From IMG/VR virus record IMGVR_UViG_3300033997_000310, positions 32,001 to 96,000 of that record: a stretch of DNA of 64,000 nucleotides. The stretch is one strand, 5' to 3'. Source of the stretch: a virus. Position numbers and translations under genes: made by a program. The notes under the pieces were generated by a model, which saw only the letters and a program-made list of their open reading frames with translations, did no database searches and was not told the origin of the DNA. Below, piece after piece: positions 3,730 through 57,955 of this stretch (positions are counted from its first letter, which is position 1; every line of letters begins with the position of its first letter).

Positions 3730-4836
3730 ATGGCGGGACAAATAGTATCAATCTGCGCCACATGCGCAAATGAATTTGTCCGGAGTGGCGGCAAATCCGG
3801 GAAATTCTGCTCTGTTGATTGTTACAGGAAATCCCAAAGGTCTGGGGATTATAAGCGCGGCCCAGGTCCATTGAGGACGAGAAGGCCATGCGCGACCTGC
3901 GGTGAAATTACCGTAAGAAACCCTGCCACCGACAGGCACGGAAACAAGTGTGACAAGGTTTTCTGCTCTCGCGCCTGCTATGATCAGCATAGGTCCAATG
4001 CGATCAAGGCCAGAAAAGTAAACTGCGCTCATTGTGGTGTCGCATTCTCCCCAGGATCTGGCAATGGATTTAAGTATTGCTCTCATGAATGCAGGGTTGA
4101 GCACAAGCGTCCAAAGACTGTCATCTGCATAAATTGCGGGTGTGAATTTTGCGCAATAAAGCGCATGAAGAGACCAAATAACAGAATTGAGTTTATTTCT
4201 GTATCAGGCGCAAAAACCTGCTCGAAAGAATGTAATTTGGCGTGGATCAGCAACAATGAAGAGAGAAAGAAAAAGATTGGCGATGCGTTCCGTGGGCCAA
4301 ATCATCCGAACTGGCAGGGCGGGAAATCGTCACTTAACAACGTATCTAAAAGAGGTGCTAGTTGGGAGAAGATAAGGAAAAAGGCACTGAAGAGAGACAG
4401 GCACAAATGCGTTGACTGTGGCATCAGCAACGACCAGTGCATTGAAAAGTTTGGTCGCGGCCTTGATGTAGATCATGTCGTTCCATTCCACAACTTTTCA
4501 AAGTTCAAGGAAGCAAATAGATTATCCAATCTGCAATGCAGATGCAGTTCATGTCACAAGCGCGCCGAAGCCAAGCGAAAAAACGTACAAATGGTGCTAC
4601 CATTCCAGGACAGTGCGAAACGCAGACACAAGGGCGGGCATCGTATGGGCGAAAAGCATCCTAAAGCGAAACTTACATCTGCCCAGGTCATGCAAATCAG
4701 GAAAGAGCACGCTGATGGAGTTTCAGCGCAAGAGCTTTCGCAGAGTTACGGCATCAAAAAGTCAAATGTGCACGCTATAATTAAGGGGAAGACCTGGAAA
4801 TGCCTACCAATATCACCGTCGAACACGCCGAATTGA
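3730..4836 (+). CDS. free-standing HNH homing endonuclease with repeated zinc-finger motifs and a C-terminal HTH
   Basis: Several CxxC..FCS..C units, NHPNWQGG, RDRHKCVDCG..VDHVVP..N..NLQCRCSSCH, GEKHPKAKLT HTH; low GC. Confidence 0.9.
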   Translation: MAGQIVSICATCANEFVRSGGKSGKFCSVDCYRKSQRSGDYKRGPGPLRTRRPCATCGEITVRNPATDRHGNKCDKVFCSRACYDQHRSNAIKARKVNCAHCGVAFSPGSGNGFKYCSHECRVEHKRPKTVICINCGCEFCAIKRMKRPNNRIEFISVSGAKTCSKECNLAWISNNEERKKKIGDAFRGPNHPNWQGGKSSLNNVSKRGASWEKIRKKALKRDRHKCVDCGISNDQCIEKFGRGLDVDHVVPFHNFSKFKEANRLSNLQCRCSSCHKRAEAKRKNVQMVLPFQDSAKRRHKGGHRMGEKHPKAKLTSAQVMQIRKEHADGVSAQELSQSYGIKKSNVHAIIKGKTWKCLPISPSNTPN

Positions 4837-5336
4837 TAACGCTCGATGAGCCTGTTGATGTTTTCGACATCCAGGTTGATGTTGATGAAAGCTTTGTCTG
4901 TGGCGGCATTGTTCTAAGCAACTCGTCCATTTGCAGGACTCGTGACAGCCTGCAATACACACCTGTGGAGCATAAGCCAATAGGTCACAGCGTTCCCTGG
5001 CTCCAAGGCCCGGGTCGGTCTCACTGGAATTGCCGATCCAGCAGCGTCCCGATCACCAAGTCATGGCGCGAACTCGGCATAGACGAAGACGAATTGCCGA
5101 TCACCACGCGCGCCTCAATGGACGGCCAAGTGCCAGCCGACATGACCTACAGCGACTGGCTCAAAAAGCAGCCGCGCTCCGTGGTTGACGAAATCCTGGG
5201 TGAGAAAAAGGCCAAGCTGTTCCTCGACGGCGGCGTCACCCTGGATCGGTTCGAGGATCGCGCCGGGAATGAACTCTCGCTCAAGGAATTGCGCGCCCGC
5301 GAGGCTGAAGCCTTCCGCAAAGTCGGCCTGTCCTGA
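4800..5336 (+). CDS. split intein C-fragment (41 aa) fused to MuF C-extein
   Basis: Block F VFDIQV..DESFVCGG; block G IVLSN/S with Asn at 4920-4922; extein SSIC...HWNCRS MuF motif. Confidence 0.88.
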   Translation: MPTNITVEHAELITLDEPVDVFDIQVDVDESFVCGGIVLSNSSICRTRDSLQYTPVEHKPIGHSVPWLQGPGRSHWNCRSSSVPITKSWRELGIDEDELPITTRASMDGQVPADMTYSDWLKKQPRSVVDEILGEKKAKLFLDGGVTLDRFEDRAGNELSLKELRAREAEAFRKVGLS

Positions 5337-5409
5337 AAGCGCGCGTTTTTGGACAAGACAGAGCAATGGATTTCTTCCATGGTTGGTTCATCAACCACGG
5401 GAGATTTCC

Positions 5410-5857: not shown

Positions 5858-6385
5858 TCAGGCGGCCAAATCAAGGTTAACGTATTCGCTCCACTGAGCC
5901 ACGGCGGCTTGCCGATAGGCTTCAGCGGCATCATTGATGTCGGAAAAACAGCCAAGCTCTTTGACGCGCTTACCAATTGTAATTTGTGCGCGCCATTTAC
6001 CACTCTTTTTGTGCCAGCTAACGCCTTTGATCCCTGATTTATTTCTACTGCTTAACGTCTTATTTACCTCATTCTCTGCCCTGGACGCTGGACGAAGATT
6101 TGACCAAGCGTTGTTGCTGGGGTTACGGTCCTTATGATCAATTTCATATGGGCACGATCCAGTCATCCAGACGAAGGCCAATCTATGGGCCGAATACATC
6201 GCATCACCAATACCGATAAGCCGATAGCCGTCCGGCCTGTTATACCCGGCCACGTCGCCAGCGCTGACACGTCGACCATTGCCAGCCAGCCACCGGAACA
6301 TTCCTGTATCTGGATCGTAATGCATCAGTTTCCGCAAGTGCTCTTGCGTAGGAAGCTGGGCAGGCGTATTTCTGCGCTTAGTCAT
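5858..6385 (-). CDS. HNH endonuclease with AP2 domain
   Basis: YDPDTG, AHRLA, IDHKDRNPSNN..NLR, NKSGIKGV, W.AQI. Confidence 0.92.
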   Translation of the reverse strand: MTKRRNTPAQLPTQEHLRKLMHYDPDTGMFRWLAGNGRRVSAGDVAGYNRPDGYRLIGIGDAMYSAHRLAFVWMTGSCPYEIDHKDRNPSNNAWSNLRPASRAENEVNKTLSSRNKSGIKGVSWHKKSGKWRAQITIGKRVKELGCFSDINDAAEAYRQAAVAQWSEYVNLDLAA

Positions 6386-6507
6386 TTGCGGCTCCTATAA
6401 GCCCGGTGATCAGAAAGGCCGGACACCGCAGCAACGGTTCCGGCCTTTCGCCATTGTGCCACATGCACATAGCATCATCAACACCACGAACGAACTTACC
6501 TGCTTCT

Positions 6508-7401
6508 CTACAGCCGATAAGCCCTATCGCTGAACTTGTCCTTGCCTCCGATGCTCACCACCTGCGCACGGCACCGGCTGGCAGCCAGGAACGCTGACTC
6601 GGCCTCAGCAGCTTCAGCGGTTGTCATATCTCGGAACCACGCCTTGGGCCTTCCCGCCTCACCAGCAGACCAGCGATATCCGCGAGCCTTCAGCGCATCC
6701 TTCATCTCAAACGGGGAATGCACCGACCACACCCGATAGGAAGGCCGCCGGGCTGCGTCCAGCAGCGCCTGCATCACCGGACGGCCCGAGACGGGTAGCG
6801 TCTGCGCCAACGCATGCACGACCGCCTGGCAGTCGTTCCCGGCCCGGTGCGCATCGAAGAAAAAACCCAACCGATAGGCGATGAAGGCCAGCTTCTGCGA
6901 CTCGATGCCTTCCGCTTTCCAATCCACATCGCTGACGCTGCATGACCAGTGCTTGGCTGCGAAGCATGGAAAGCGCCGCTCTACCTTAGGCCTGTCGAAA
7001 TCGGCGTTGTGGGCGATCACCAGATCGGCGGCGGCGCACAGCGATTCCACCAAGCAGTCATCGAACCCCAGACCGCGCACCATATCGTCCGTGATGCCGG
7101 TGATGGAGACGATTTCCGGCGACAGTGGCACGCCTGGATCCTCGAACATTGATAGCGGCGTGCCCACCTCAAAGATGCGACCCGTCGTCGGACAGAACGA
7201 AAAGGGCAGGGCGCCGAACTCGATGATGGAGGCGTTTTCCTCCAGGCCGGTGGTCTCGGTGTCGATCACGAGGCCGGTCTTGAACGGTTCGCCGTCGCCG
7301 CGCTCGTGATAGCGGTCAACAGGCCGGAACCGGCGGACGACGCGGAAGTCGCCGGTCTGTTCCAGAAGGTCGATGCACTGCGGGATCGTGATGCTGGTCA
7401 T
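6508..7401 (-). CDS. DnaQ-like (DEDDh) 3'-5' exonuclease
   Basis: IDTETTG, AHNADFD, HRAGND motifs. Confidence 0.9.
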   Translation of the reverse strand: MTSITIPQCIDLLEQTGDFRVVRRFRPVDRYHERGDGEPFKTGLVIDTETTGLEENASIIEFGALPFSFCPTTGRIFEVGTPLSMFEDPGVPLSPEIVSITGITDDMVRGLGFDDCLVESLCAAADLVIAHNADFDRPKVERRFPCFAAKHWSCSVSDVDWKAEGIESQKLAFIAYRLGFFFDAHRAGNDCQAVVHALAQTLPVSGRPVMQALLDAARRPSYRVWSVHSPFEMKDALKARGYRWSAGEAGRPKAWFRDMTTAEAAEAESAFLAASRCRAQVVSIGGKDKFSDRAYRL

Positions 7402-7743: not shown

Positions 7744-8130
7744 TCAGAATGCCGGCGCTTCGCCATTGGCGATGGCAAGCAGGGTTTCCGCGTGGCACGG
7801 AAGGCCGGGGGCGCACCAGCAGGCCAGATCGCGCCCGCGAAGATGCTTCCACACGTCGGCCGGTGTCGGAACCGGATCAATCATACGCGAGTGGTGGGGG
7901 CCGGGCGTGGTGAGATCCAGCCGATACAGCTCCACGGCCTTGGCATTGGCTTCCGCCTTGCTGGTGAATGGCCCATGGTGGCCGCTGCTGGATACCCACC
8001 ATGTCCCATCCCAGACATCTCGCCAGACCTTCCACGGGTTTCCCCATCGGCTGCCCCGCCCGACATAGATCGCATCTTCCGGCATCTGCCAACCCTTGGT
8101 GCGGCGACGCTGTATGCGTTTAGGCTGCAT
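7744..8130 (-). CDS. DUF4326 family protein
   Basis: YVGRGSRWGNP and LRGRDLACWC..PCHA. Confidence 0.85.
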   Translation of the reverse strand: MQPKRIQRRRTKGWQMPEDAIYVGRGSRWGNPWKVWRDVWDGTWWVSSSGHHGPFTSKAEANAKAVELYRLDLTTPGPHHSRMIDPVPTPADVWKHLRGRDLACWCAPGLPCHAETLLAIANGEAPAF

Positions 8131-12659: not shown

Positions 12660-13805
12660 ATGCCGGTTCTGAGTTACAAGTATCGCCTGTATCCGACACG
12701 CGCCCAAGGTGATGCGTTGACGGCGATGCTCGGCTCTTTCTGCGAATTGTACAATGCGGCCTTGCAGCAACGCATAGAAGCATACCGCCGTCAGGGAAAA
12801 ACGCTTCGTTATATTGACCAGGCCGGCGAGTTGAAGTCAGTGCGCGCCGTTGACGAACAGATGGCTGGCTACAGTTACAGTGCGGAGCAGCAGGTATTGC
12901 GCCGGCTAGACAAGGCATTTTCTGCTTTTTTTGGACGGATAAAAAAGGGAAAGGCTGGCTTCCCACGCTTTCGCGCCAAGAGCATGTTTGACAGTGCCGA
13001 ATTTAGGTTCGGTGACGGACTGACGATTCGGAAGACTGGAAAGCTTAGGGTTGCCGGAATTGACGGAGAAATAAAGGTAAAATGGCACAGAGATATTCCT
13101 GTTCGAGCAAAGATTGGCGCGGCAGTAATATCCAGATCATGCGGCAAATGGTACATATGCTTTCAGATCACCATGCCAGACGCTTATGGACCTTGGCCCG
13201 ACAAGGGAGCGGTCGGCATCGACATGGGTCTGTCGAACCTGATCGCCACATCGGACGGCGAGACGGTGCGGACGCCGCAATTCACCAAGGATGCGGTCAA
13301 GAAGCAGCGCAGGCTTCAGCGTAGTCTCGCGCGCTGCAAGCGGGGCTCCAAGGGGCGGGCAAAGGCCCGGCGTAACCTTGCGCGGCACAGCGCCAAAACG
13401 GCTAATCGCCGCAGGGACTTTGCGCACAAACTTTCCCGCTCCTTGGTAGAACGCCACAGCACCATAGCGGTTGAGGACCTGAACATCACCGTATTGGCCC
13501 GTGCGATACTTGCCAAGTCGGTCCATAATGCCGCGTGGGCGCAGTTGCTGGGGATGATCGGATACAAAGCCGCAAATGCTGGTGTTCGGGTGATCGCCGT
13601 CAACCCACGGGGAACAAGCCAAACGTGCCCGGAGTGCGGAGCTTTGGCCGTCAAAAAGCTTGCGACCAGAGTTCATAACTGCGCAAATTGCGGCTGTGTT
13701 ATGGATCGAGATGTTGCGGCGGCCATGGTTATACTTAAACGGGCGCTTTCTGAAATGGGGCCGGGACACGGCCTTGAGACGATAAGTGGGCGGATTGCCG
13801 CGTAA
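12660..13805 (+). CDS. tnpB: RNA-guided endonuclease TnpB
   Basis: YKYRLYPT; RuvC GIDMG, VEDL, DRD; zinc finger CPECG..CANCG. Confidence 0.95.
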   Translation: MPVLSYKYRLYPTRAQGDALTAMLGSFCELYNAALQQRIEAYRRQGKTLRYIDQAGELKSVRAVDEQMAGYSYSAEQQVLRRLDKAFSAFFGRIKKGKAGFPRFRAKSMFDSAEFRFGDGLTIRKTGKLRVAGIDGEIKVKWHRDIPVRAKIGAAVISRSCGKWYICFQITMPDAYGPWPDKGAVGIDMGLSNLIATSDGETVRTPQFTKDAVKKQRRLQRSLARCKRGSKGRAKARRNLARHSAKTANRRRDFAHKLSRSLVERHSTIAVEDLNITVLARAILAKSVHNAAWAQLLGMIGYKAANAGVRVIAVNPRGTSQTCPECGALAVKKLATRVHNCANCGCVMDRDVAAAMVILKRALSEMGPGHGLETISGRIAA

Positions 13806-39268: not shown

Positions 39269-39435
39269 TTTTTCGTCCACGCTCATTTGCGTGGTGAGTG
39301 AATCCAGCCCCAGGTAAACGAGATTCTGCCCCTCATTGCCGCTCCCACTAAGTGCGGGGTGAGTGATCCAGCGCGATGCCATTCATATAAGGCTGTCATG
39401 TTGTCACCCCCGCCCAAATGCGGGGTATGTGAACC
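39269..39435 (-). CRISPR. mini-array 3: three degenerate 35-36 nt repeats, two spacers
   Basis: Repeats at 39269, 39335, 39400 (period 65-66); the 39400 repeat shares 28 nt with the repeat at 42677. Confidence 0.75.
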
Positions 39436-39493: not shown

Positions 39494-41707
39494 TCACGCT
39501 GCGACCTCCTGTTTCACCGCATACGGGAACACTTCCGCGTAACCGTACACATCATCAAACCCCGACCGGAACCGTTCCGGGATGCAGTCGGAGAAGCCGG
39601 CGAACGAGGCGTCGTTGTAAGCCCGCGCCCGGCGGTTGCTGGTGATGCTCTGCGGCAGCGGGAACCGTGGATCGAGCATCCAAACCCGCACGTCGTCGCT
39701 GGCCTGACGGATGCCGCGACCGAAGCCCTGTTTCAGCCGCTTCTTGGCCCCCAGGGCGACGCTGGAGAAGTCGATAGCCCGGATGGCATCTTCCGACAGC
39801 CCGCGCGCACGCAGGGCCGCCGCACGGGCCCCAGAGCGGGCATTATCGAGCGATCCGAACGGCAGTCGGGTGACGACGAGGTTCTGCACCATGCCGGGCA
39901 GATCGACGCCTTCCCATGCCGCCGGGGAAATCAGCAGAGCGTTCGGCGTTTCGCGGTACTTGGCCAGCGCATCAACCAGCTTCGTGCCGCGCACATGCTC
40001 AATCACGTCAACCCCAGCCGCACGGACGCAAGCGGCAATTGCCTGCGTGTCGACATAGCTCGTGGTCAGCACCAGCGTGCGCCCGCCGGCGGCATGGGCC
40101 GCAACGACGCCATCAGCGGCATATTCAACCCAGGCCGGGTTGGTGGTGACGATTTCCTCATCGTCGACCTTGGCCGTGGGGCGGGGAGCGGCGCGATCCG
40201 CCAAATGCAGGGAAGACCAGCGCCCGAACACTTCCGGCGCGAACCGCTGGCACCGATCCGGCGACACGTTCTTGACCTTCTCCGGGTTGGACCGGTCGTA
40301 ATAGATGCCGACCTCGCTGCGGAACGACCGGAAGTCGGCATCGCTTTCCGACTGGCTCCGAGCCGGCGCGTCCAGGGTGGCGCTGGTGAAGACCAGCGAA
40401 CGCAGGAACGGCGCATATTCCGTGCCGTCCGACGACTTGCCGGGCTTGAACAGGCGCGCGGCCAGCCGGCCAGGATAGACCGGCACGATGCTGAGGGACG
40501 GATAGGAGCGTACCGGAGACCAGCGCAGCAGCGGGCACTGAATGGCCGAATGCTCGCCTTCCTTGGCGTCCAGCGTGCCGTTGGCGAAGCTGCGCAGTTC
40601 CTCCACCATGTCACGCATCTCCGCGACGACACCGGCATCAACGCCGGCTTTCTTGCCGCGCGTGGAAGCCTCCAGCAGCAGACCGCTGAGATAGACCGCG
40701 TGCCCCACGGCTTCCTTGCGCAGATCGGCCATGTTCGGGGCCGAAAGCAGGACATGCCCGCCACGATCATCGCGCGTGAAGCCGGGGCGATGCTCCATCT
40801 TCTCGAAGGTGGCCCCCATCCATGCTTCCCAATCCTTCAGGGCGGCGAACGCCTTGATGGTGTCGATACCGGCGTCACTGACGGCGGTGAGCGTGCGGCG
40901 CATCATCGGGGCAGAGACGCGAGTGTCAAAAACCGATTCGGCGGCGTGCGGGATGCGGTCGGCCTCATCGATCACGCCGATATCGAATCCGTCGCTTTCA
41001 CCGGCCAGCAGCCGGTTCCACCGGATGGCGGAAATCATGGTCAGGGCATGGTTGGTGACGACGATATCGGCGGTATGACTGCCAACAACGTGGTCCTTGT
41101 ACCGCTGCTGGTCATCGTCGCTGCACACGGCGGTGAGGCACACGTCTGCCTCGGAAATGCCGCACGGCAGCGGGCCGAACGTCTCTTTCCACTCCGCGAT
41201 ATCGCCGCTGGCCTCTGCGAAGCTGCGCAGCGCCTCCAGGCTGATCCGGGCATCGTCCGTGAGCGCGCCATCGGTGGCCATGGCAGCCATCAGTGCAACG
41301 ATGCGGGACGGTGACAGGAAGTTGCGGCGACCCTTGCGCACGGCGGCGCTGATCTGGATTCCGGTGATGGCCTTGGCGACCGCGATGGCGACCGGCACGT
41401 CCTTGCCCATCAACTGCGTCTGCAGATTGATGGTGTATGTGCTGACCAAGCCGCGCTGCCCGGTGCGGGCGCAATGCACGGCCATGGGAACCAGATAGCC
41501 CAGCGACTTGCCGACGCCGGTTTCGGCTTCATAGAGCGACACTTCGCCGATGCCGGGTGTGGCGTTCTCGAAGCTGTTGGCAACCGCCTTGGCGTAGGCG
41601 ATTTGCTGGGGATTGGGGCGATACGCCTTGCCCAGCTTCTTCATTTCGGCATCAACGGGACCGCCAGCGGCGAACGCGGCGGCGACGATTTCAGAGAGAG
41701 TCGGCAT
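39494..41707 (-). CDS. csf4: CRISPR-associated DinG helicase (Csf4/CasDinG)
   Basis: EAETGVGKSLGYL, ST.TI.LQ.Q, IDEAD, TSATL, WEGVDL, QG.GR.IR; next to csf2 and arrays. Confidence 0.9.
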   Translation of the reverse strand: MPTLSEIVAAAFAAGGPVDAEMKKLGKAYRPNPQQIAYAKAVANSFENATPGIGEVSLYEAETGVGKSLGYLVPMAVHCARTGQRGLVSTYTINLQTQLMGKDVPVAIAVAKAITGIQISAAVRKGRRNFLSPSRIVALMAAMATDGALTDDARISLEALRSFAEASGDIAEWKETFGPLPCGISEADVCLTAVCSDDDQQRYKDHVVGSHTADIVVTNHALTMISAIRWNRLLAGESDGFDIGVIDEADRIPHAAESVFDTRVSAPMMRRTLTAVSDAGIDTIKAFAALKDWEAWMGATFEKMEHRPGFTRDDRGGHVLLSAPNMADLRKEAVGHAVYLSGLLLEASTRGKKAGVDAGVVAEMRDMVEELRSFANGTLDAKEGEHSAIQCPLLRWSPVRSYPSLSIVPVYPGRLAARLFKPGKSSDGTEYAPFLRSLVFTSATLDAPARSQSESDADFRSFRSEVGIYYDRSNPEKVKNVSPDRCQRFAPEVFGRWSSLHLADRAAPRPTAKVDDEEIVTTNPAWVEYAADGVVAAHAAGGRTLVLTTSYVDTQAIAACVRAAGVDVIEHVRGTKLVDALAKYRETPNALLISPAAWEGVDLPGMVQNLVVTRLPFGSLDNARSGARAAALRARGLSEDAIRAIDFSSVALGAKKRLKQGFGRGIRQASDDVRVWMLDPRFPLPQSITSNRRARAYNDASFAGFSDCIPERFRSGFDDVYGYAEVFPYAVKQEVAA

Positions 41708-41822
41708 GTTTGAGTTCCTGTTTGCAGATGGTGATGGGAAAGGTACATCATGGCGGGCAATGAGAAAAGTGCATAATTTGACCGGCCCCGGCAGGCGGGG
41801 GGATTTTTGCGTTCATCACTCA

Positions 41823-43108
41823 GTTGACGGACCCGCAGCGGCGGGTGGCGGCATGAACGAGAAGCCGCAGTTGCGCACCTCTTTTTCGTCCCCGCGCTGG
41901 CGGGGAAAGGGGCGTTGCCGAATCCGTCCTTTATCAATTTCCATACCCGCAACTGCGTGGTCGCTTGGTCGGCGGTCGTGACCGCTCCACCACCGAGTTT
42001 TCACCCCCGCGTGTGCGGGGAAGGCCACGGCTGTCTTGCGCGTCGGTCTACGGAGCCATTTTTCATCCCCGCGCGTGCGGAGCAGCATTGGCGCTGGATA
42101 TCATCGCGGACCTGAACCAATTTCCGTCCCCGCACGTGCGGGGGAGGCCTGGACGGCAGAGACCTACCAGCGCCTCGATTGTTTTCGTCCCCGCGCGTGC
42201 GGGGGATACCCCGCCACCTATCGCCGCAATGGCGTGTTCCTGTTTTCGTCCCCGCGCGTGCGGGGGAGGAATGAACATCCAATCAATGTGCAAGCCCTGC
42301 CACTTTCCGCCCCCGCCCATGCAAGGCTTCCCATTTTATCAAGCAGTCGTCATTGGCCGCTCTTTCCACCCCCGCCATGCAGGGAACCGTCCGCCCGATG
42401 TTGGCTCCATCCATCTGGTTGTCGTCCCAACGAGTGCTGGGAAAGTGATTCTGCCACGGGTTGAAATGGTGGCGTCGATATTTTCACCCCCACTGGATTG
42501 CGGGGTAGGTGAGGCATCGTATCGGTTTCGTCAGACCCGGCCAAGTTTCCGTCCCCACCAGAATGCGGGGCAAGAGAGACGAAGGCTGGCACGTTCAAGG
42601 TGGTGTTCGTGTTTCCGTCCCCACCAGAATGCGGGGTAAGCAAAACGCTGTCCTTGCCGCTGGTACGTCGCCTCACGTTTCCGGCCCCGCCCAAATGCGG
42701 GGTATGTGAACCCTCATTTTTCCGATTTCGTACCCATCAAACGTTTTCGTCCCCGCCCAAATGCGGGGTAAGAGAGACACATGCACAAGGCTGGCCTGAT
42801 AACCGGTTGTTTCCGTCCCCACCTAAATGCGGGGTAAGAGAGACCGGCGCCCGGGTGAAGCGGATGGCCCGCCAGTTGTCGTCCCCACCTAAATGCGGGG
42901 TAAGAGAGACACATCGGGGGGTGAATCCGAACAGCGATCTGTTGTCGTCCCCACCTAAATGCGGGGTAAGAGAGACGCTCGTCATCGCTCAGAAGATCCC
43001 GCTCCAGTTGTCGTCCCCACCTAAATGCGGGGTAAGAGAGACTCCCGCCGACGGCCATCGGGCGCGGTATAGGTTGTCGTCCCCACCTAAATGCGGGGTA
43101 AGAGAGAC
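41823..43108 (-). CRISPR. main array, about 21 repeats; leader-proximal repeat GTCTCTCTTACCCCGCATTTAGGTGGGGACGACAAC, about 30 nt spacers
   Basis: 36-nt repeats at 43073, 43007, 42941, 42875, 42809, 42743, 42677, 42611, 42545, 42480; shorter, diverged repeats at about 42418, 42362, 42303, 42242, 42181, 42120, 42059, 41997, 41937, 41882, 41823. Confidence 0.93.
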
Positions 43109-43200
43109 TGATCCTAACACAACTCATTGCAATCAAATACGAATTACGCATTCGCATTTGAAAAAAACCATGATGTACTTGTTCAAGAACCGGTGAAAAT
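43109..43200 (-). promoter_or_regulatory. AT-rich CRISPR leader
   Basis: AT-rich and adjacent to the most uniform repeats; junction GATCCTAACACAACTCATTG resembles GATCCAGCCACAAAGCACTG beside mini-array 3. Confidence 0.65.
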
Positions 43201-43209
43201 GCGCGCTTT

Positions 43210-44271
43210 TTACGGCGCGCGGAAGTTCAGGCTGGTCACGTCGGTGGCATCCCAGGCCGCCAGCGCGGAAGCGATGATGCCGGTATCCAGCAACTCCAGG
43301 CCACCGAACGGTTCGATCTGGACGCTGCCGACATTTGCGAAGCCGTCACCTTCCCGCACCGTCACCGTCCAGGTGCCGCTGATCACCCCGCAGCCGTGAT
43401 TCGCGTGCGCCCCGACAACCGGGTCCAGCGCCAACTCACGCAGCGCGGCCAAGAACAGGCCCAACTCCAGCTTGGTCACGTTCCGCAGAACCATGCGCTG
43501 GTTCAGCACCTTACCCTGCGGGATCACCTCGTAACCGCCCAACACCTGCTTGATGTTGACGCCGGCGGCCTCGACCTGCCCCTTCAGCGCGTCACGCTTG
43601 GCGGACAGTTCCGCGACTTCAGCAGCCGCATCGGCATTGCCCTTGGCGTTCTTCACGGCCTTGCGCAGGGCCGTCTCGATGTTCTTCAGTTCGGCCTTGG
43701 CCTTGCTGTTGCTGGCACCTTCCTCCGACATGGACAGCCACTTGTCGCGCTCGCCATCAGCCAGGGTATTGAGCGTGTCCGGGGTGCGTTCCATGTCATC
43801 GCTGCGGATGCCAGCGATCTTATCCGGTTCGGTCGGCTGTTCCGGCACGGCATGGCTCACCATCAGCTTGCCGGCGGTATGCGCGGCCATGCTGCCGAAA
43901 AGCGAGATCAGCGGGTTCGCGGCACGCAGATTGGCCGCCGCGATGATATCGGCCTTGCTGTCGCTGCCCTTGTCCTTGATGCCGCCGACCACGTTGAAAT
44001 AGTGGTCATCCAGGGTGAAGACGGGAGCGCCATCACCCTGCACCGCGCGGCGAACGACGGTGAGCGCGTGCCGACGCAGCTTTCCGCGCAAGCCGGAGCC
44101 AGGGAAATAGACGGTCTCGGCATTGCCCACGGTCATGCGGGGCAGACGCGACGGCGGGTTCTTCTCGCGTTCGGCGCGCTTCTCGGTCTCGGTCTTCGGC
44201 GGGCAGGTGGCCAGAGGCGATTCGGTGGTGATGGTGCCGTTCAGGACGACGGTATAGGTCTGGGTGTTCAT
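43210..44271 (-). CDS. csf2: type IV Cas7-like backbone protein Csf2
   Basis: PGSGLRGKLRR, NPLISLFG, G.L, GAH...GCG. Confidence 0.9.
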   Translation of the reverse strand: MNTQTYTVVLNGTITTESPLATCPPKTETEKRAEREKNPPSRLPRMTVGNAETVYFPGSGLRGKLRRHALTVVRRAVQGDGAPVFTLDDHYFNVVGGIKDKGSDSKADIIAAANLRAANPLISLFGSMAAHTAGKLMVSHAVPEQPTEPDKIAGIRSDDMERTPDTLNTLADGERDKWLSMSEEGASNSKAKAELKNIETALRKAVKNAKGNADAAAEVAELSAKRDALKGQVEAAGVNIKQVLGGYEVIPQGKVLNQRMVLRNVTKLELGLFLAALRELALDPVVGAHANHGCGVISGTWTVTVREGDGFANVGSVQIEPFGGLELLDTGIIASALAAWDATDVTSLNFRAP

Positions 44272-44321: not shown

Positions 44322-44662
44322 TTTGTCGGCCCCGCGTGGGCGGGGCATGAGCAGAAACCCACTCGACCTCTGGGCGGTGACTTTTCGCCCCCGCGTGTGC
44401 GGGGCGAGAGTCGGTCGGGATGTGGCCAATCACCTTCTCGTTATCGTACCCGCGCGGGTGCGGGTTTTGGTCTTGACTGTCACTGAACTTCGCAATCTCC
44501 ATCCTCTTGCCGTCCCCGTGCTCGTGCGGGGTGAGGGGTGCGTCGTTCGATTACTCGGATGACAACGAAGTCCTTACCGTCCCCGCGCACGTGCGAGGCA
44601 TCGGCTGTTGTGCTTTCGGATCAAGACCAGCCCTTTCCATCCCCACTCACGCCGGGAACAGC
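44322..44662 (-). CRISPR. array 2: six degenerate repeats between cas6 and csf2
   Basis: CCCCGC-loop-GCGGGG-type hairpins with 8-nt handles at 44322, 44381, 44440, 44506, 44573, 44633 (periods 59-67). Confidence 0.8.
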
Positions 44663-45222
44663 CGCAACATCCCCATGCCATAGCTCTTGGCCGGGCCGAT
44701 GCCGATCTTCATCGCATCCGTCAGTGCATCGGCATCGGTAACGCGCAACGCGCCGGTGAAGGTGGTGAAATCTAAGCCGTCCTTGCCGATCTTCGCCTCG
44801 TTGCGCATGACATGGCGGAACTCTGTGCGGAGCGCGACTTGCTCGACCACGAAGCCGTGCTTCAGCCCGCGCGCCTTGAGCCAGTCCATCCGGCCCTCAT
44901 CGTCCCCACGACGCAGCATCACGCGCTTGCCGCGCTGCCCGCCGTTGCGCTGATCCACGCGGATGCACCGCGTCGGATGCGCCGTCAGCACGAAGCGGTA
45001 CGTGCAGCCTTCGACTGGCAATGCCACGTCGTCGGCGTGCTGGGCAACTGTATCGGGCAGGTTGTCTGAGCGAATCACGATGCCAGGCGCGGCCTCGTCA
45101 ATCGCAAACAGGAAATCCCGCGTCTTGTCGCTGCCTTCACCAAGCATGAAGGCATAGGCCATTTCATGCAGAGCATAGCGGTTGTGGGGCAGGGCGGGCA
45201 GTTGGATGGAGACTTCACGCAT
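44647..45222 (-). CDS. cas6e: Cas6e-like crRNA processing endoribonuclease
   Basis: Y.LH, F.L.A.PT, WL......GF, F.G.L.V.D, GIGPAKSYGMGML glycine-rich loop. Confidence 0.9.
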   Translation of the reverse strand: MREVSIQLPALPHNRYALHEMAYAFMLGEGSDKTRDFLFAIDEAAPGIVIRSDNLPDTVAQHADDVALPVEGCTYRFVLTAHPTRCIRVDQRNGGQRGKRVMLRRGDDEGRMDWLKARGLKHGFVVEQVALRTEFRHVMRNEAKIGKDGLDFTTFTGALRVTDADALTDAMKIGIGPAKSYGMGMLRLFPA

Positions 45223-45225
45223 TTT

Positions 45226-45903
45226 TCAGCCCTCGTTCTTCTCGCGGTCACCGCACAGCAGCGACAGCATGTTGAAATCATCGCTGCCCACGGCGGGCAG
45301 GCGGTCGATAACGGCGTCCAGCGCCGGGCACTTGACGATCATGGCGTCGATTTCTGCGTCGATCGATTCCGCCTCTGAGTGATTGCGCTTACGGCGCTCC
45401 AGGGCGCGGGCGGCGGCCCGCCATTGCATCGGCGCGATGCCGTCCAGATCGGCATAAAGGCCTGCAACCAGGGCGCGGTTGATGGTTGCGGTCTCGACGC
45501 CGGAAAGGCTGATCACATCGCTGCCGTAATTGATCCGCCAGTTGTGGATCGTGTTCCAGTCCTTGCCATGGATGACGACCATGAACGGGCTGGCCGGCGG
45601 CGACAGGACGATTTCGGCAATCCAGTTGGGAATAGTGCGCCAAGATCCATCATGGATCACAGTGCTGGCCGGCGGCTGGCGGCACGGCTTGATATCGGCC
45701 ATCAGCACGCAGCCGGTCTCAGTGACCAGCGACATGGCCTTGCCGCCACCCAGGCGAACCGCAGAACCGGCATTGGCCGCGTGCGCGTGGTTGCGGGACA
45801 GGGCAACGATGGCCGGATTGCTTTCATTACTCACGGCAGAATGAAGGTACTGGCCAATGCCGCGATACCAGAAATCCAGCGGGTCAAGGTTGATGATGTC
45901 CAT
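45226..45903 (-). CDS. divergent Csf1/Cas8-like large subunit
   Basis: Position between csf3 and cas6; L.PP.SPF...H..W block; no N-terminal CxxC finger visible. Confidence 0.6.
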   Translation of the reverse strand: MDIINLDPLDFWYRGIGQYLHSAVSNESNPAIVALSRNHAHAANAGSAVRLGGGKAMSLVTETGCVLMADIKPCRQPPASTVIHDGSWRTIPNWIAEIVLSPPASPFMVVIHGKDWNTIHNWRINYGSDVISLSGVETATINRALVAGLYADLDGIAPMQWRAAARALERRKRNHSEAESIDAEIDAMIVKCPALDAVIDRLPAVGSDDFNMLSLLCGDREKNEG

Positions 45904-45911
45904 TGCTTGCC

Positions 45912-46598
45912 TCATGCGGCCAGAAAGCGCGGGGAAATCACGGCGTCGCCAACCGGATTAGGCACGGCGCACAGTGCGTAGTCGCCTTGCCAATACGGCG
46001 GCTGAAATCGCTCCGCATTCAGCGCGGCGCGCTGATTGGACAGCTTCCCCCAGATGCTGACGGGGACAGGCCGGGCCGGACTGCCATCAGCCAGGGCCAA
46101 GCCGACGTGGTGGCCAGTCACTTCCCGCACATCAATGCGGGACACCTGACCATATCCGACGGAACGCTTGGTTCCGATGCCAGATGCGTCGGACAGCAAA
46201 TCCTTGACGGCGGCAACGTCTCCGGTTCCGCAGAACCAGACGGCATCGGCATTGATGCTGGTGTATTCCGACAGGCTGTTCTGGTAATCGCCCCGCGCGC
46301 TGTCGATGCGCGGGAGCGCCTTGCGCCCGCCGTTCGGCCGGATCATGTCCGGCGTAATTTCCATGTCGGCACGGATTGAGCCGACGATCATCACGCCGCG
46401 CAATGGAGAATTGCCATCGATGAAAGCCTGCGAACCAGCCCAGACGCCGCTGCTGCGATCCAGCGGGATTTCTGCGTGTGCGCGTTCAACGCTGCCGGTG
46501 CGCTCATAAATCAGCGCCGCAAGCAGTCCATCAAGCAGCAGCCGACGACCCGGAATGACCGGTGTTGCCATGCTGATCTTGATCACAAACGGGGTCAT
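45912..46598 (-). CDS. csf3: type IV Cas5-like protein Csf3
   Basis: TPV...LDGLLA, IPL, W..S, GD...V..LL....IG.KR..GYG.V, RPVP, PPYW; GGAGG RBS. Confidence 0.88.
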   Translation of the reverse strand: MTPFVIKISMATPVIPGRRLLLDGLLAALIYERTGSVERAHAEIPLDRSSGVWAGSQAFIDGNSPLRGVMIVGSIRADMEITPDMIRPNGGRKALPRIDSARGDYQNSLSEYTSINADAVWFCGTGDVAAVKDLLSDASGIGTKRSVGYGQVSRIDVREVTGHHVGLALADGSPARPVPVSIWGKLSNQRAALNAERFQPPYWQGDYALCAVPNPVGDAVISPRFLAA

Positions 46599-46763
46599 CC
46601 GACCTCCTGTTGTCTGCGTTTCGATGGGCTGATATTGATAAATTCCATTACGCAACGCAAGCAGGAAAATGAGAAAAGTTCATTATATTGCTGCGAGGCA
46701 TGAGATTGGACGTTTTCCAGATTCGCGGTATGATGGCGCGACTCGGGAAGCAATGGGGCCGCC

Positions 46764-56350: not shown

Positions 56351-57955
56351 TCAGAGATGTTCGGCCAGGGCGGCGCGGATGTCGGCCAGCGTCTGATGAC
56401 GCTTCATCTGGCCATTCTCGAATACGACCTCCAGCACGCCGGCGTTGGCCTGCTCGCGCGTCTGCCGATCCAGCAGATGGAAGCCGAAGCCGGTCTTCTC
56501 GACACGGATCAGGCCAGCGGCCGACTTCTTCACGCCACTGTCGGTCTTCGGGTCCTTCTGCAGGACGCGCTCCTCGCCGTTGACGACGCCATAGGTGGCC
56601 TTGATCGCCGTGCCGAAGGTATCGCGGGTGACGTACTGGTAGGTGTAACTGCCGATGCCCAGCACCACGTTCGTGCTGGCAAATCCCTTGGCGGCCAGGC
56701 GCTTCAAGATGCGCTCCGCCCGATCCAGGGTGATGCTGTCGCCGTAGATCAGGCCGACGTGGCTGTCCAACTGCCGGTGACCTGTGCTTGTCTCGGTGCC
56801 GCCGAACACGTCCCACAGGCACTGGATAGCGCCGCGCTGGGCCGGAGTTGGCTCCCATATCCGATGCGTCGAAATGCTGGGCCCGTGCGCGGCACCGGTG
56901 TTGTGGGCCTCGACTTTGTAGAAGTGGCCGTCCTGGTGGAACACATCCACCCCAGCCTGCAGCATGTCCATCAGGCTGACGAACTCGCTGCGATCCGGCA
57001 CGCCGCAGATGATGTCGACCGGGTCGCCGCTATCGGGCCGGAACACCACCTTGCCGTCGCGCGCCAGGATCTCATCCTTTAGCTTGACCGTGAACTCGGT
57101 CATCACCTTCCAGAAATCCCAGGTGTCGCTGACGATGCTGACGATACCGGACGGGTAGGTGTGGATCAGGCGGCGGAAGGTTTCGACTTCGTCATCATGC
57201 CCGCCCATGCACATGACGCTGTGCTCCGTGGCCGGCACGGACCCGCCGACGAAGGTCTCGGCGCCGCTGTAATATTCCTCCAGGAAGTCGATGGCGGGGA
57301 TGGTATCGGTTCCGGTGAAGCTCAGCAGGTGGGCCGCGCCGCTCGACATGGCGTCGTGAATGCCGCTCATGCCCCGGAAGCTGAAATCGTGGCCCTGCCA
57401 CAGCGCGAAGGCGGGATCACCGCCGGTCTCGACCGCCATGCGATGGAACAGCCGGCGATACTCAAAGGCGGTAGTCGCCGTCGTCATCGGCTTCCACAGT
57501 TCGGCGCTCAGTTGCGTCTCGACATAGTTTGTCAGCCACGCGAAATCTGGGTGTGTGTTCTCGATCGTGAACATGGGCACGCGGATGTCGACGCGACTGC
57601 CTTCCGGCACGGCCTTGATGCGCAGCGGCAGATAGCCCAGGTCATGCAGCGCCGCGATGTGATCCGCGCCGACCGCTCCGGCGCCCAGATAGCCGTCCAT
57701 GCGACGCGTGTAACGGGCGACGACCGTATCCCGAGACAAGCCGAAGAACGAGCGGTCCCAGGTGTCGATCAGGAGCCACTGACACACGGCCTGGAGACCG
57801 AAGAACACGACCTTGTGGTCGAAGTCAGACAGCATCTTGGCGTGCGCATCACCGCGGCACGTCCAGTTGCTGTAGACCAGTTGGGTGCCGGGCGGATACT
57901 GCTTGCGATGCCCGGTCTTATAGCCATCGGTGGCGTGGGGTGCGAAGATGTTCAT
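56351..57955 (-). CDS. nadV: nicotinamide phosphoribosyltransferase family (Namat-like)
   Basis: TDGYK.GH..QYP, HDFSFRG, PATEHSV, SIVSDTWD, RPDSGDP, IYGDSIT, KDPKTD. Confidence 0.93.
   Translation of the reverse strand: MNIFAPHATDGYKTGHRKQYPPGTQLVYSNWTCRGDAHAKMLSDFDHKVVFFGLQAVCQWLLIDTWDRSFFGLSRDTVVARYTRRMDGYLGAGAVGADHIAALHDLGYLPLRIKAVPEGSRVDIRVPMFTIENTHPDFAWLTNYVETQLSAELWKPMTTATTAFEYRRLFHRMAVETGGDPAFALWQGHDFSFRGMSGIHDAMSSGAAHLLSFTGTDTIPAIDFLEEYYSGAETFVGGSVPATEHSVMCMGGHDDEVETFRRLIHTYPSGIVSIVSDTWDFWKVMTEFTVKLKDEILARDGKVVFRPDSGDPVDIICGVPDRSEFVSLMDMLQAGVDVFHQDGHFYKVEAHNTGAAHGPSISTHRIWEPTPAQRGAIQCLWDVFGGTETSTGHRQLDSHVGLIYGDSITLDRAERILKRLAAKGFASTNVVLGIGSYTYQYVTRDTFGTAIKATYGVVNGEERVLQKDPKTDSGVKKSAAGLIRVEKTGFGFHLLDRQTREQANAGVLEVVFENGQMKRHQTLADIRAALAEHL

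Follow-up and report, generated by a model that had tools for sequence, protein, structure and literature searches.

Two repeat geometries and a conserved hairpin in the arrays of a type IV-A CRISPR operon on a temperate phage

A type IV-A operon with three arrays

The stretch analysed here (the window, 64,000 nucleotides long) covers bases 32001-96000 of the 114,801-bp IMG/VR virus record IMGVR_UViG_3300033997_000310 and carries a type IV-A CRISPR (short palindromic repeats, clustered and regularly interspaced) operon on its minus strand, with three repeat arrays placed between the genes. The main one, array B (43108-41778; all array coordinates are given on the minus strand), changes its repeat geometry along its length, and its repeats differ from one another in sequence while keeping a common hairpin. 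The virus record is complete, with a 127-bp direct terminal repeat and 61% G+C. Genes for RecT, a major head protein, a scaffold, a tape measure and tail proteins were seen, together with an integrase; these structural genes and the integrase identify the carrier of the array as a temperate siphovirus.

The operon runs in the order csf3, a gene without assignment, a cas6e-like gene, csf2 and dinG (Table 1). It thus holds the csf2, csf3 and DinG genes of type IV-A as well as a nuclease of the Cas6 family for CRISPR RNA (crRNA). The cas6e-like protein aligned over its full length with E. coli CasE (4QYZ_K), and both a histidine (in YALHE), which we take to be at the position of the catalytic His20 of CasE, and a GIGPAKS-type glycine-rich loop were kept. 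Type IV Cas6e enzymes have been described as His/Tyr nucleases (PMC8175902). The 229-aa product encoded next to it had no Pfam or PADLOC match and no obvious zinc finger; a gene of similar length occupies the same slot at 6619-7278 in a related phage contig (L009), a correspondence of position and length without protein alignment. Only type IV-A genes flank the arrays, cas10 and csm/cmr not having been searched genome-wide. Cas1 was not found in the complete 114.8-kb genome, Cas2 and Cas3 having had no separate search, and spacers must therefore come from outside the phage. To this extent the borrowing of host Cas1-Cas2 assumed in the original prediction, made from the sequence of this stretch, is supported; the switch to a different integrase that it added is plausible but unproven.

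The three arrays hold 31 units, 22 of them in array B. All units follow one design: the 5' flank varies, the 6-bp stem (CCCCGC/GYGGGG) encloses a 3-6-nt loop, and a tail of 8 nt (NYGNNAAN) follows. In B1-B9, a 10-nt flank, an 18-nt hairpin and the tail add up to a 36-nt repeat, followed by a 30-nt spacer; B1-B4 are identical across the 36 nt and their spacers measure exactly 30 nt. Over block I as a whole (B1-B11) the period is 64-66 nt and the loop 6 nt, or 4 nt in B11. The spacing becomes irregular in B10-B13, and B12-B13 are far in sequence from both adjoining blocks. In block II, B14 and B15 are identical over a 24-nt core and decay grows toward B22, units B19-B22 being decayed. Between the end of a tail and the following stem lie 40 nt in eight successive cases (B1-B2 to B8-B9), then 39, 38, 33 and 35 nt; the value is 37 nt four times (B13-B14 to B16-B17), then 38, 36, 31, 35 and 22 nt. 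From block II to block I, the loop grows from 4 to 6 nt and the tail-to-stem distance from 37 to 40 nt. The two geometries originally proposed, a 36-nt repeat with a 65-66-nt period and a class with a period of about 61 nt, are confirmed by these stem positions and spacings.

Array A has loops of 4, 6, 6, 6, 4 and 4 nt (A0 to A5) and periods of 58, 67, 66, 61 and 59 nt. In array C, unit C1 is nearly the same as B7, and C3 carries a compensated A-U pair. No spacer of array B is duplicated, and none is common to arrays A, B and C. Regular repeats with unique spacers, accompanied by cas genes and by an AT-rich leader beside the most uniform repeats, are the features expected of a CRISPR locus.

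A structural descriptor (a fully paired, C-rich 6-bp stem, a loop of 3-8 nt and the tail NYGNNAAN) returned 25 minus-strand sites in the 114.8-kb genome, all 25 inside the three arrays; it also returned a single plus-strand site, and none in reversed or complemented controls. Tandem Repeats Finder reported just 42743-43109, about the first six units, and a seed-based finder divided the units into two unrelated families. The expectation that standard finders would miss much of the array therefore holds. Neither repeat class was matched by CRISPR-DR or any other Rfam family.

Several features bordering the repeats were also observed. The csf2 stop, directly before the leader, lies within a GC hairpin (GCGCGC-N8-GCGCGC) with ATTTT after it, and this hairpin looks like a terminator or attenuator between csf2 and array B, judging from its sequence; a simple sigma-70 scan of the leader itself gave no consensus promoter. 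The hairpin of unit A0 overlaps the cas6e stop codon, the TGA lying in the loop. L009 likewise has a single degenerate hairpin resembling a repeat (7837-7862) between cas6e and csf2, and this conserved position suggests that Cas6e may cut its own operon transcript there. Five of 18 spacers (B2-B3, B4-B5, B13-B14, B16-B17 and B17-B18) open with TGG, for about 0.3 expected by composition, and T is the commonest first base of spacers in the 61-nt block. Such a start may be derived from a protospacer adjacent motif or may be a boundary signal common to both blocks.

Table 1. Genes, array segments and individual units in the window
Feature	Position	Strand	Description
csf3 (type IV Cas5)	45912..46655	-	PADLOC typeIV_Cas5 Csf3_0_IV, E 2.4e-37
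229-aa gene	45226..45915	-	csf1/cas8-like candidate by position (large-subunit slot)
cas6e-like endoribonuclease	44647..45222	-	Pfam PF08798, E 9e-26; PADLOC Cas6/Cas6e
csf2 (type IV Cas7)	43210..44271	-	PADLOC Csf2_0_IV, E 6e-53; Pfam RAMPs; homologues found
dinG / csf4 helicase	39494..41707	-	PADLOC Csf4_0_IVA, E 2e-140; Pfam Helicase_C_2
Array A, A0-A5	44322..44666	-	6 degenerate units, between cas6e and csf2
A0 hairpin	44633-44666	-	at cas6e stop
A3	44440-44475	-	double compensatory change, ACCCGC/GCGGGT
GC hairpin	43195-43220	-	at csf2 stop
Array B leader	43109..43209	-	AT-rich, ~100 nt, adjoins identical units B1-B4
Array B block I, B1-B11	42418..43108	-	36-nt repeats (34 in B11), 30-nt spacers (28 before B11)
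B11	42418-42451	-	double compensatory change, CCCAGC/GTTGGG
B12-B13	42303..42394	-	short periods (57, 58); U-containing stems; common tail G[CT]GGAAAG
Array B block II, B14-B22	41778..42275	-	CCCCGC-N4-GCGGGG + ACGAAAAC, period 61
B19	41937-41970	-	5' arm CCACGC, 3' arm GCGGGT
B21	41823-41856	-	double compensatory change, ACCCGC/GCGGGT
Stem starts, B1-B9	43098, 43032, 42966, 42900, 42834, 42768, 42702, 42636, 42570	-	each step 66
Stem starts, B10-B13	42505, 42441, 42384, 42326	-	steps 65, 64, 57, 58
Stem starts, B14-B18	42265, 42204, 42143, 42082, 42020	-	steps 61 each, 62 for the last
Stem starts, B19-B22	41960, 41905, 41846, 41800	-	steps 60, 55, 59, 46
Array C	39269..39435	-	3 units of the 66-nt class, after dinG
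C3	39269-39304	-	double compensatory change, CCACGC/GCGTGG
Nicotinamide phosphoribosyltransferase gene	56351-57955	-	phrog_448, E 5e-192

Conservation of the hairpin among divergent repeats

An alignment of all 31 units with MAFFT misregistered the loop classes, which were therefore aligned and counted separately. Paired stem cells amounted to 97.4% and 96.2% in the two loop classes, and to 37-68% in controls in which the partner was slid. Each class contained two double changes, a level reached by 2 of 500 shuffles in one class and by 12 of 500 in the other. The compensated changes first noticed at 39269 and 44440 are real, and two more were found (in B11 and B21, Table 1).

Divergence was distributed unevenly within the repeats. 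Counted over all distinct units, departure from the consensus affected 7-9% of positions in the stems, 26% in the tails and about 50% in the 5' flanks, and tail positions G3, A6 and A7 were nearly invariant. Four of the five C>A stem changes had a matching G>T partner. Changes of C>T, which leave a G.U pair in RNA of the array strand, were counted at 13 unit-positions, and G>A changes, which leave a C.A mismatch, at two. In minimum free energy folds of the units of this phage and of L009, nearly all had 8 nt between the hairpin and the end of the repeat. A hairpin was present at every expected period position, leaving no ascertainment gap. Owing to the low divergence of stems relative to flanks, to the compensation and to the asymmetry between C>T and G>A, plain neutral decay is unlikely, and the observations indicate selection on an RNA hairpin at a fixed distance from the handle, as the 8-nt tail is called hereafter. 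Such an arrangement is what a nuclease of the Cas6e type and a Csf complex require. Only the hairpin and the handle with its three nearly fixed bases are constrained; loop, flank and repeat length are free.

Unit B19 combines a 5' arm of the type found in C3 with a 3' arm of the type found in B21 and A3, only four of its six stem positions being paired. It looks like a recombinant of two differently compensated repeats.

Resemblance to other CRISPR types and related loci

The original prediction had likened the leader-proximal, newer units to type III and the distal, older ones to type I-E. A tail ACGACAAC, ACGGAAAC or ACGAAAAC occurs in both the 36-nt class and the 61-nt-period class. The ACGNAAAC tail is one base from ACGAGAAC, the staphylococcal III-A tag (PMC5687920), yet it is common to old and new units. 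It belongs to this type IV-A system throughout and gives no sign of a switch. The units of block I do resemble type III-A repeats in their length of 36 nt, in their hairpin near the 3' end and in their near-ACGAGAAC tail, and repeats of that kind measure 36-37 nt and end in a tag like ACGAGAAC or ATTGAAAG, and, since the tail is found here in the 61-nt units too, it does not discriminate. Type III arrays have spacers of variable length and lie beside type III effector genes, whereas spacer length is fixed in the phage, at exactly 30 nt in eight consecutive units. The type III label is not supported. Type VI-A and type II arrays combine a 36-nt repeat with a spacer of about 30 nt, and the 30-nt spacers of the phage match this geometry. 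For type II-A, a 36-bp repeat has been reported (PMC6895254). Unlike types III, VI and II, however, the phage operon showed no genes of any of these types, its tail recurs in the 61-nt units and its nuclease is Cas6e-like.

As for type I-E, a blastn search in 'distant' mode of 72,556 plasmids found matches to the 61-nt units only, all of them to type I-E arrays, which adjoin cas1e-cas2e in Acetobacter pasteurianus pAPA01-011 and Roseomonas marmotae p1318-5. The repeats of these arrays read GTGTT-CCCCGC-N4-GCGGGG-ATGAACCG with a period of 61 nt; type I-E repeats measure 28-29 nt and alternate with spacers of 32-33 nt. Units B14-B22 share with them the hairpin, the 8 nt after the second inverted repeat (IR2), the period, a spacer-plus-flank length of 37 nt and the presence of a nuclease of the Cas6e family, their exact 5' boundary being uncertain. 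They differ in that the I-E handle (ATAAACCG or ATGAACCG) and the GTGTT-type 5' end are replaced by ACGAAAAC and a weak GCCTC. The plasmid arrays also consist of 24-25 identical repeats with adjacent cas1e-cas2e, while the phage repeats vary and no adaptation genes stand beside them. The I-E label thus suits the hairpin, loop, period and matches of this class and does not suit its handle and flank. Similarly, of the repeat of about 31 nt with spacers of about 30 nt originally proposed for it, the period of 61 nt holds; reliable conservation covers 24-26 nt, extended to 29 nt by counting the weak GCCTC flank, and spacers are 32 nt if the repeat is taken as 29 nt. The dichotomy between types I-E and III is a misreading of the shared handle, and the two labels describe two modules of every repeat.

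The closest known systems are those of type IV-A with a Cas6e-type nuclease (IV-A2 and IV-A3, PMC7038947). They share csf2, csf3, dinG, a Cas6e-like nuclease, an I-E-like hairpin, the lack of cas1, cas2 and cas3 in the operon, the residence on a mobile element and, for one phage block, the I-E period of 61 nt. In the phage, by contrast, the carrier is tailed and temperate, genes and main array follow the order csf3-X-cas6e-csf2-array-dinG with arrays between genes, the handle ACGNAAAC is not I-E-like, leader-proximal repeats of 36 nt have 30-nt spacers, and heterogeneity is strong. As a rule, ordinary arrays degenerate in just the last one or two repeats. Divergence does grow away from the leader within each block of the phage array, as in such trailer-end degeneration, but some two thirds of the units depart from the sequence of the first one, their length changes and the hairpin is kept by compensation.

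Scans of IMG/VR with Csf2 or DinG as the sole query returned nothing, a profile found only two loci (L009 and L010), and pattern scans gave unrelated arrays (L018 and L027). One of the latter, at 4450-5400 on the minus strand of a low-G+C phage or prophage (L027, IMGVR_UViG_2585428141_000003), comprises about 15 units of 36-nt repeats ending in CCCC-loop-GGGG-ACGGAAAC or ACGAAAAC; almost every unit has a loop of its own on a stem that stays the same, and the spacers are of varying length. The closest Csf2 (P0002, 70% identical) is encoded on a 23.9-kb contig. The phage contig L009 (Csf2 62% identical, same gene order) has 36-nt repeats, 30-nt spacers and a ACGACAAC tail; its repeat divides into 8+20+8 nt, against 10+18+8 in the phage studied here. 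Its first three repeats are identical, after which each unit has a different stem (CCCCUG/CGGGGG, CCCCCG/CGGGGG, CCCCGG/CUGGGG, CCUACG/CGUGGG, CCCUUG/CAGGGG, CCCCGC/GCGGGG). Variable repeats with a preserved hairpin were also found in the distant type IV-A loci L012 and L013 (Csf2 29% identical, 35-nt repeats, 30-31-nt spacers) and in L015, a 264-kb metagenome contig. In the latter, arrays at 5892-6942 (upstream of the cas genes) and 13536-13771 (after dinG) have a 60-nt period, variable repeats and a compensated CCGCACC/GGTGCGG stem. A 23-unit array in another relative (L011) is nearly uniform, I-E arrays with their own cas1-cas2 are fully uniform, and in a metagenome-assembled genome (G003) csf2 is split and no array follows it. 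Repeats that vary while their hairpin is preserved characterise this type IV-A lineage.

The phage was present only in DNA contigs from one subsurface/soil metagenome study, in which the array showed no variants, and no RNA runs containing it were listed. Its major head protein is less than 50% identical to that of any isolate phage, and an Atlas lookup with DinG gave 'Pseudomonadota' as the only, and loose, lead on the host. Elsewhere in the window, the phage encodes a nicotinamide phosphoribosyltransferase (Table 1), of the nicotinamide adenine dinucleotide (NAD) salvage type linked to counter-defence against NAD-depleting systems.

Origin of the two geometries

The distance of each unit to the template of its block is 0 in B1-B4 and rises through 2, 3, 5 and 4 to 8 in B10, and it is at least 7 at B12-B13. 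It then returns to 0 at B14 and B15, stands at 3 in B16, B17, B18 and B20 in a star-like pattern, and reaches 8-9 at B19 and B21; the regularity of spacer length also resets at B14. A patch of exchanged sequence is visible in B6-B8. The stem and tail of B6 are exactly those of B14, B7 has the flank, loop and 3' arm of C1, B6 combines, as a hybrid, a modern flank with a C1-type 3' half, and B8 joins a foreign flank to the 3' half of B9, whose own flank is again modern and B1-type. From its sequence, B6-B8 can be taken as the footprint of a recombination patch related to array C, downstream of dinG. Because of the resets at B14 and of this patch, array position does not look like a reliable clock, and the array is better read as a mosaic with two decay gradients, in which a 36+30 array with its own decayed trailer was joined to a 61-nt array with its own gradient, with smaller exchanges in addition. 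Earlier work proposed that spacers are rearranged between IV-A3 arrays and that recombination can supply new ones (PMC7038947).

We therefore regard the stretch, with reasonable though far from full confidence, as a mosaic of structure-constrained units and the main crRNA array of a type IV-A operon, carried by a temperate phage, that has no cas1, cas2 or effector nuclease. By analogy with E. coli CasE and with type IV-A complexes, a Cas6e-type enzyme would cut each repeat at the 3' base of the 6-bp C/G hairpin, leaving the 8-nt 5' handle (NYGNNAAN) for Csf3, and the hairpin would remain attached at the 3' end. Cas5 is the subunit that grips the 7-8-nt 5' tag in type IV-A complexes, with Cas6 sitting on the hairpin as a cap (PMC11519345). 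Constraint would then fall on hairpin and handle alone, leaving loop, 5' flank and total repeat length open to change. The phage cannot add spacers itself, and units would be gained only seldom, either through host integrases working in trans or through recombination between related arrays; since they would be kept long, their repeats would drift apart while selection preserved the fold. The two geometries would most likely come from two length-setting integrases, working in succession here or in two arrays later joined.

Several points weigh against this interpretation. Processing and use of the old units are deduced by analogy, and no protospacer was found for any spacer: a 'distant' blastn search of the array against 50,697 phage records gave no match, the search of the 72,556 plasmids gave repeat-to-repeat matches to I-E arrays only and no protospacer, and blastn-short with each spacer against the rest of the phage genome and the fetched related loci gave nothing of at least 18 nt. 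Independent compensatory events are few (four), and relatedness among sequences can inflate shuffle statistics. The 5' flanks of B14 and B15 differ at three of five positions, which leaves the old repeat at 26 or 29 nt, and their identical cores may reflect purifying selection instead of youth. Only one close relative, L009, shows an array, on a contig that ends after 10 units. In L012, covariation is weak (92% paired), and its count of double-changed pairs was reached by 171 of 500 shuffles.

The alternatives concern either the source of the two geometries or the cause of the heterogeneity. The original prediction held that the array records a switch in time, and in such a succession an array growing only at its leader would have been served first by I-E Cas1-Cas2 and later by an integrase duplicating 36 bp and inserting 30 bp, so that position along it would stand for time. 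The identical 36-nt units do adjoin the leader and the 61-nt units are distal, no leader remnant lies between the blocks, B11 with its long flank and 4-nt loop looks intermediate, 6-nt-loop units A1-A3 lie upstream of 4-nt-loop units A4-A5 in array A, and type IV-A is known to borrow I-E adaptation, with spacer acquisition in trans via Cas1-Cas2 (PMC7038947; bioRxiv 10.1101/2023.06.23.546257). Divergence is not monotonic, however: at least 7 changes separate B12-B13 from B14, the core of B15 equals that of B14, and B6 shares its stem and tail exactly with B14. If one first repeat had evolved throughout, it would have had to change many times and then change back; the series of flanks from B9 through B8 and B7 to B6 likewise needs reversal, and in array A the unit farthest upstream, A0, has a loop of 4 nt. 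A clean switch in time at the site, which these data do not demonstrate, is less likely than fusion or recombination of arrays, and we give it a low probability. At the opposite end, a single helper may have served throughout if a 5-nt insertion upstream of the first inverted repeat (IR1) was inherited, the loop gained 2 nt and the change in spacer length comes from misplaced boundaries. In E. coli I-E, the second cut falls 8 nt past GCGGG and 16 nt past CCCCGCG; an insertion is corrected if it lies between the inverted repeats and is inherited, through duplication as a longer repeat, only if it lies upstream of IR1 (PMC5039180). In agreement with a single helper, the 3' arm is followed by 8 nt in both classes, disagreement between the flanks of B14 and B15 makes the 5' boundary of the old class uncertain, and spacers opening with TGG occur in both blocks. 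Yet the 6-nt loop, which that correction should remove, spans 10 units, most new units carry an altered second base in the IR2 anchor (GTGGGG), spacer-plus-flank length is exactly 40 or 37 nt without overlap, and L009 reaches a total of 36 nt by a different partition; we hold this explanation to be improbable. The constancy of 36 nt under differing internal partitions suggests a ruler outside crRNA processing, i.e. an integrase. The persistent 6-nt loop, GTGGGG and the 30-nt spacers are unexpected from the E. coli I-E machinery, so that two different integrases are plausible. A single array fed by two host machineries, one of I-E type (29+32) and one making 36+30 units, whether in succession or at entry points B1 and B14, is possible but not the likelier outcome, and a change of borrowed integrase in any form remains about as tentative. 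The array is real and composite, with two acquisition geometries; a switch from I-E to type III repeats is not demonstrated.

Regarding the heterogeneity, it could be supposed that the distal two thirds of the array are dead and that hairpins linger there as slowly decaying GC palindromes or as an artefact of the search. Indels and short spacers do accumulate in B10-B13 and B19-B22, and B19, B22, C2, A0 and A2 each have one or two unpaired stem positions. Such simple decay is nevertheless very unlikely, as it accounts neither for a hairpin at each expected period position and the contrast between stem and flank divergence, nor for four double compensations and an asymmetry of C>T and G>A that is sensible only for RNA of the array strand; the arrays moreover lie inside the operon, where dinG downstream probably needs read-through unless it has its own promoter. 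Alternatively, diversification could itself be selected in a mobile element unable to regain spacers, non-identical repeats suppressing repeat-repeat recombination and spacer loss, which would make heterogeneity adaptive and not a by-product of age. Heterogeneous repeats with preserved hairpins recur in L009, L012/L013 and L015, variation in L012 is ungraded along the array, and I-E arrays are uniform. On the other hand, the identity of B1-B4 implies no diversification on entry, and the 23-unit array of L011 is nearly uniform; selected diversification thus appears improbable, on a par with the single helper.

The idea that type IV-A systems borrow adaptation has already been published; what is new here is the change of geometry within an array and the extent of structure-preserving repeat divergence, of which a limited full-text literature search found no description in type IV arrays. 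In type IV-A systems without adaptation genes, the building and upkeep of arrays are still largely deduced indirectly. The present array makes the constraints on the effector side visible, namely a hairpin of 6 bp, an 8-nt handle in which three bases hardly vary, and a fixed distance between the two. If two host machineries did feed it, the array would be a readable record of the passage of the phage through hosts with different CRISPR types, the hairpin and three bases of the handle would be all that the Cas6e and Csf proteins of the phage need, and arrays of this kind could serve to reconstruct the host history of mobile elements. The findings are useful for the design of minimal or non-repetitive type IV-A guide arrays and for the recovery of arrays missed by standard finders, and they extend the short list of phages with known type IV-A systems by a complete temperate siphovirus.

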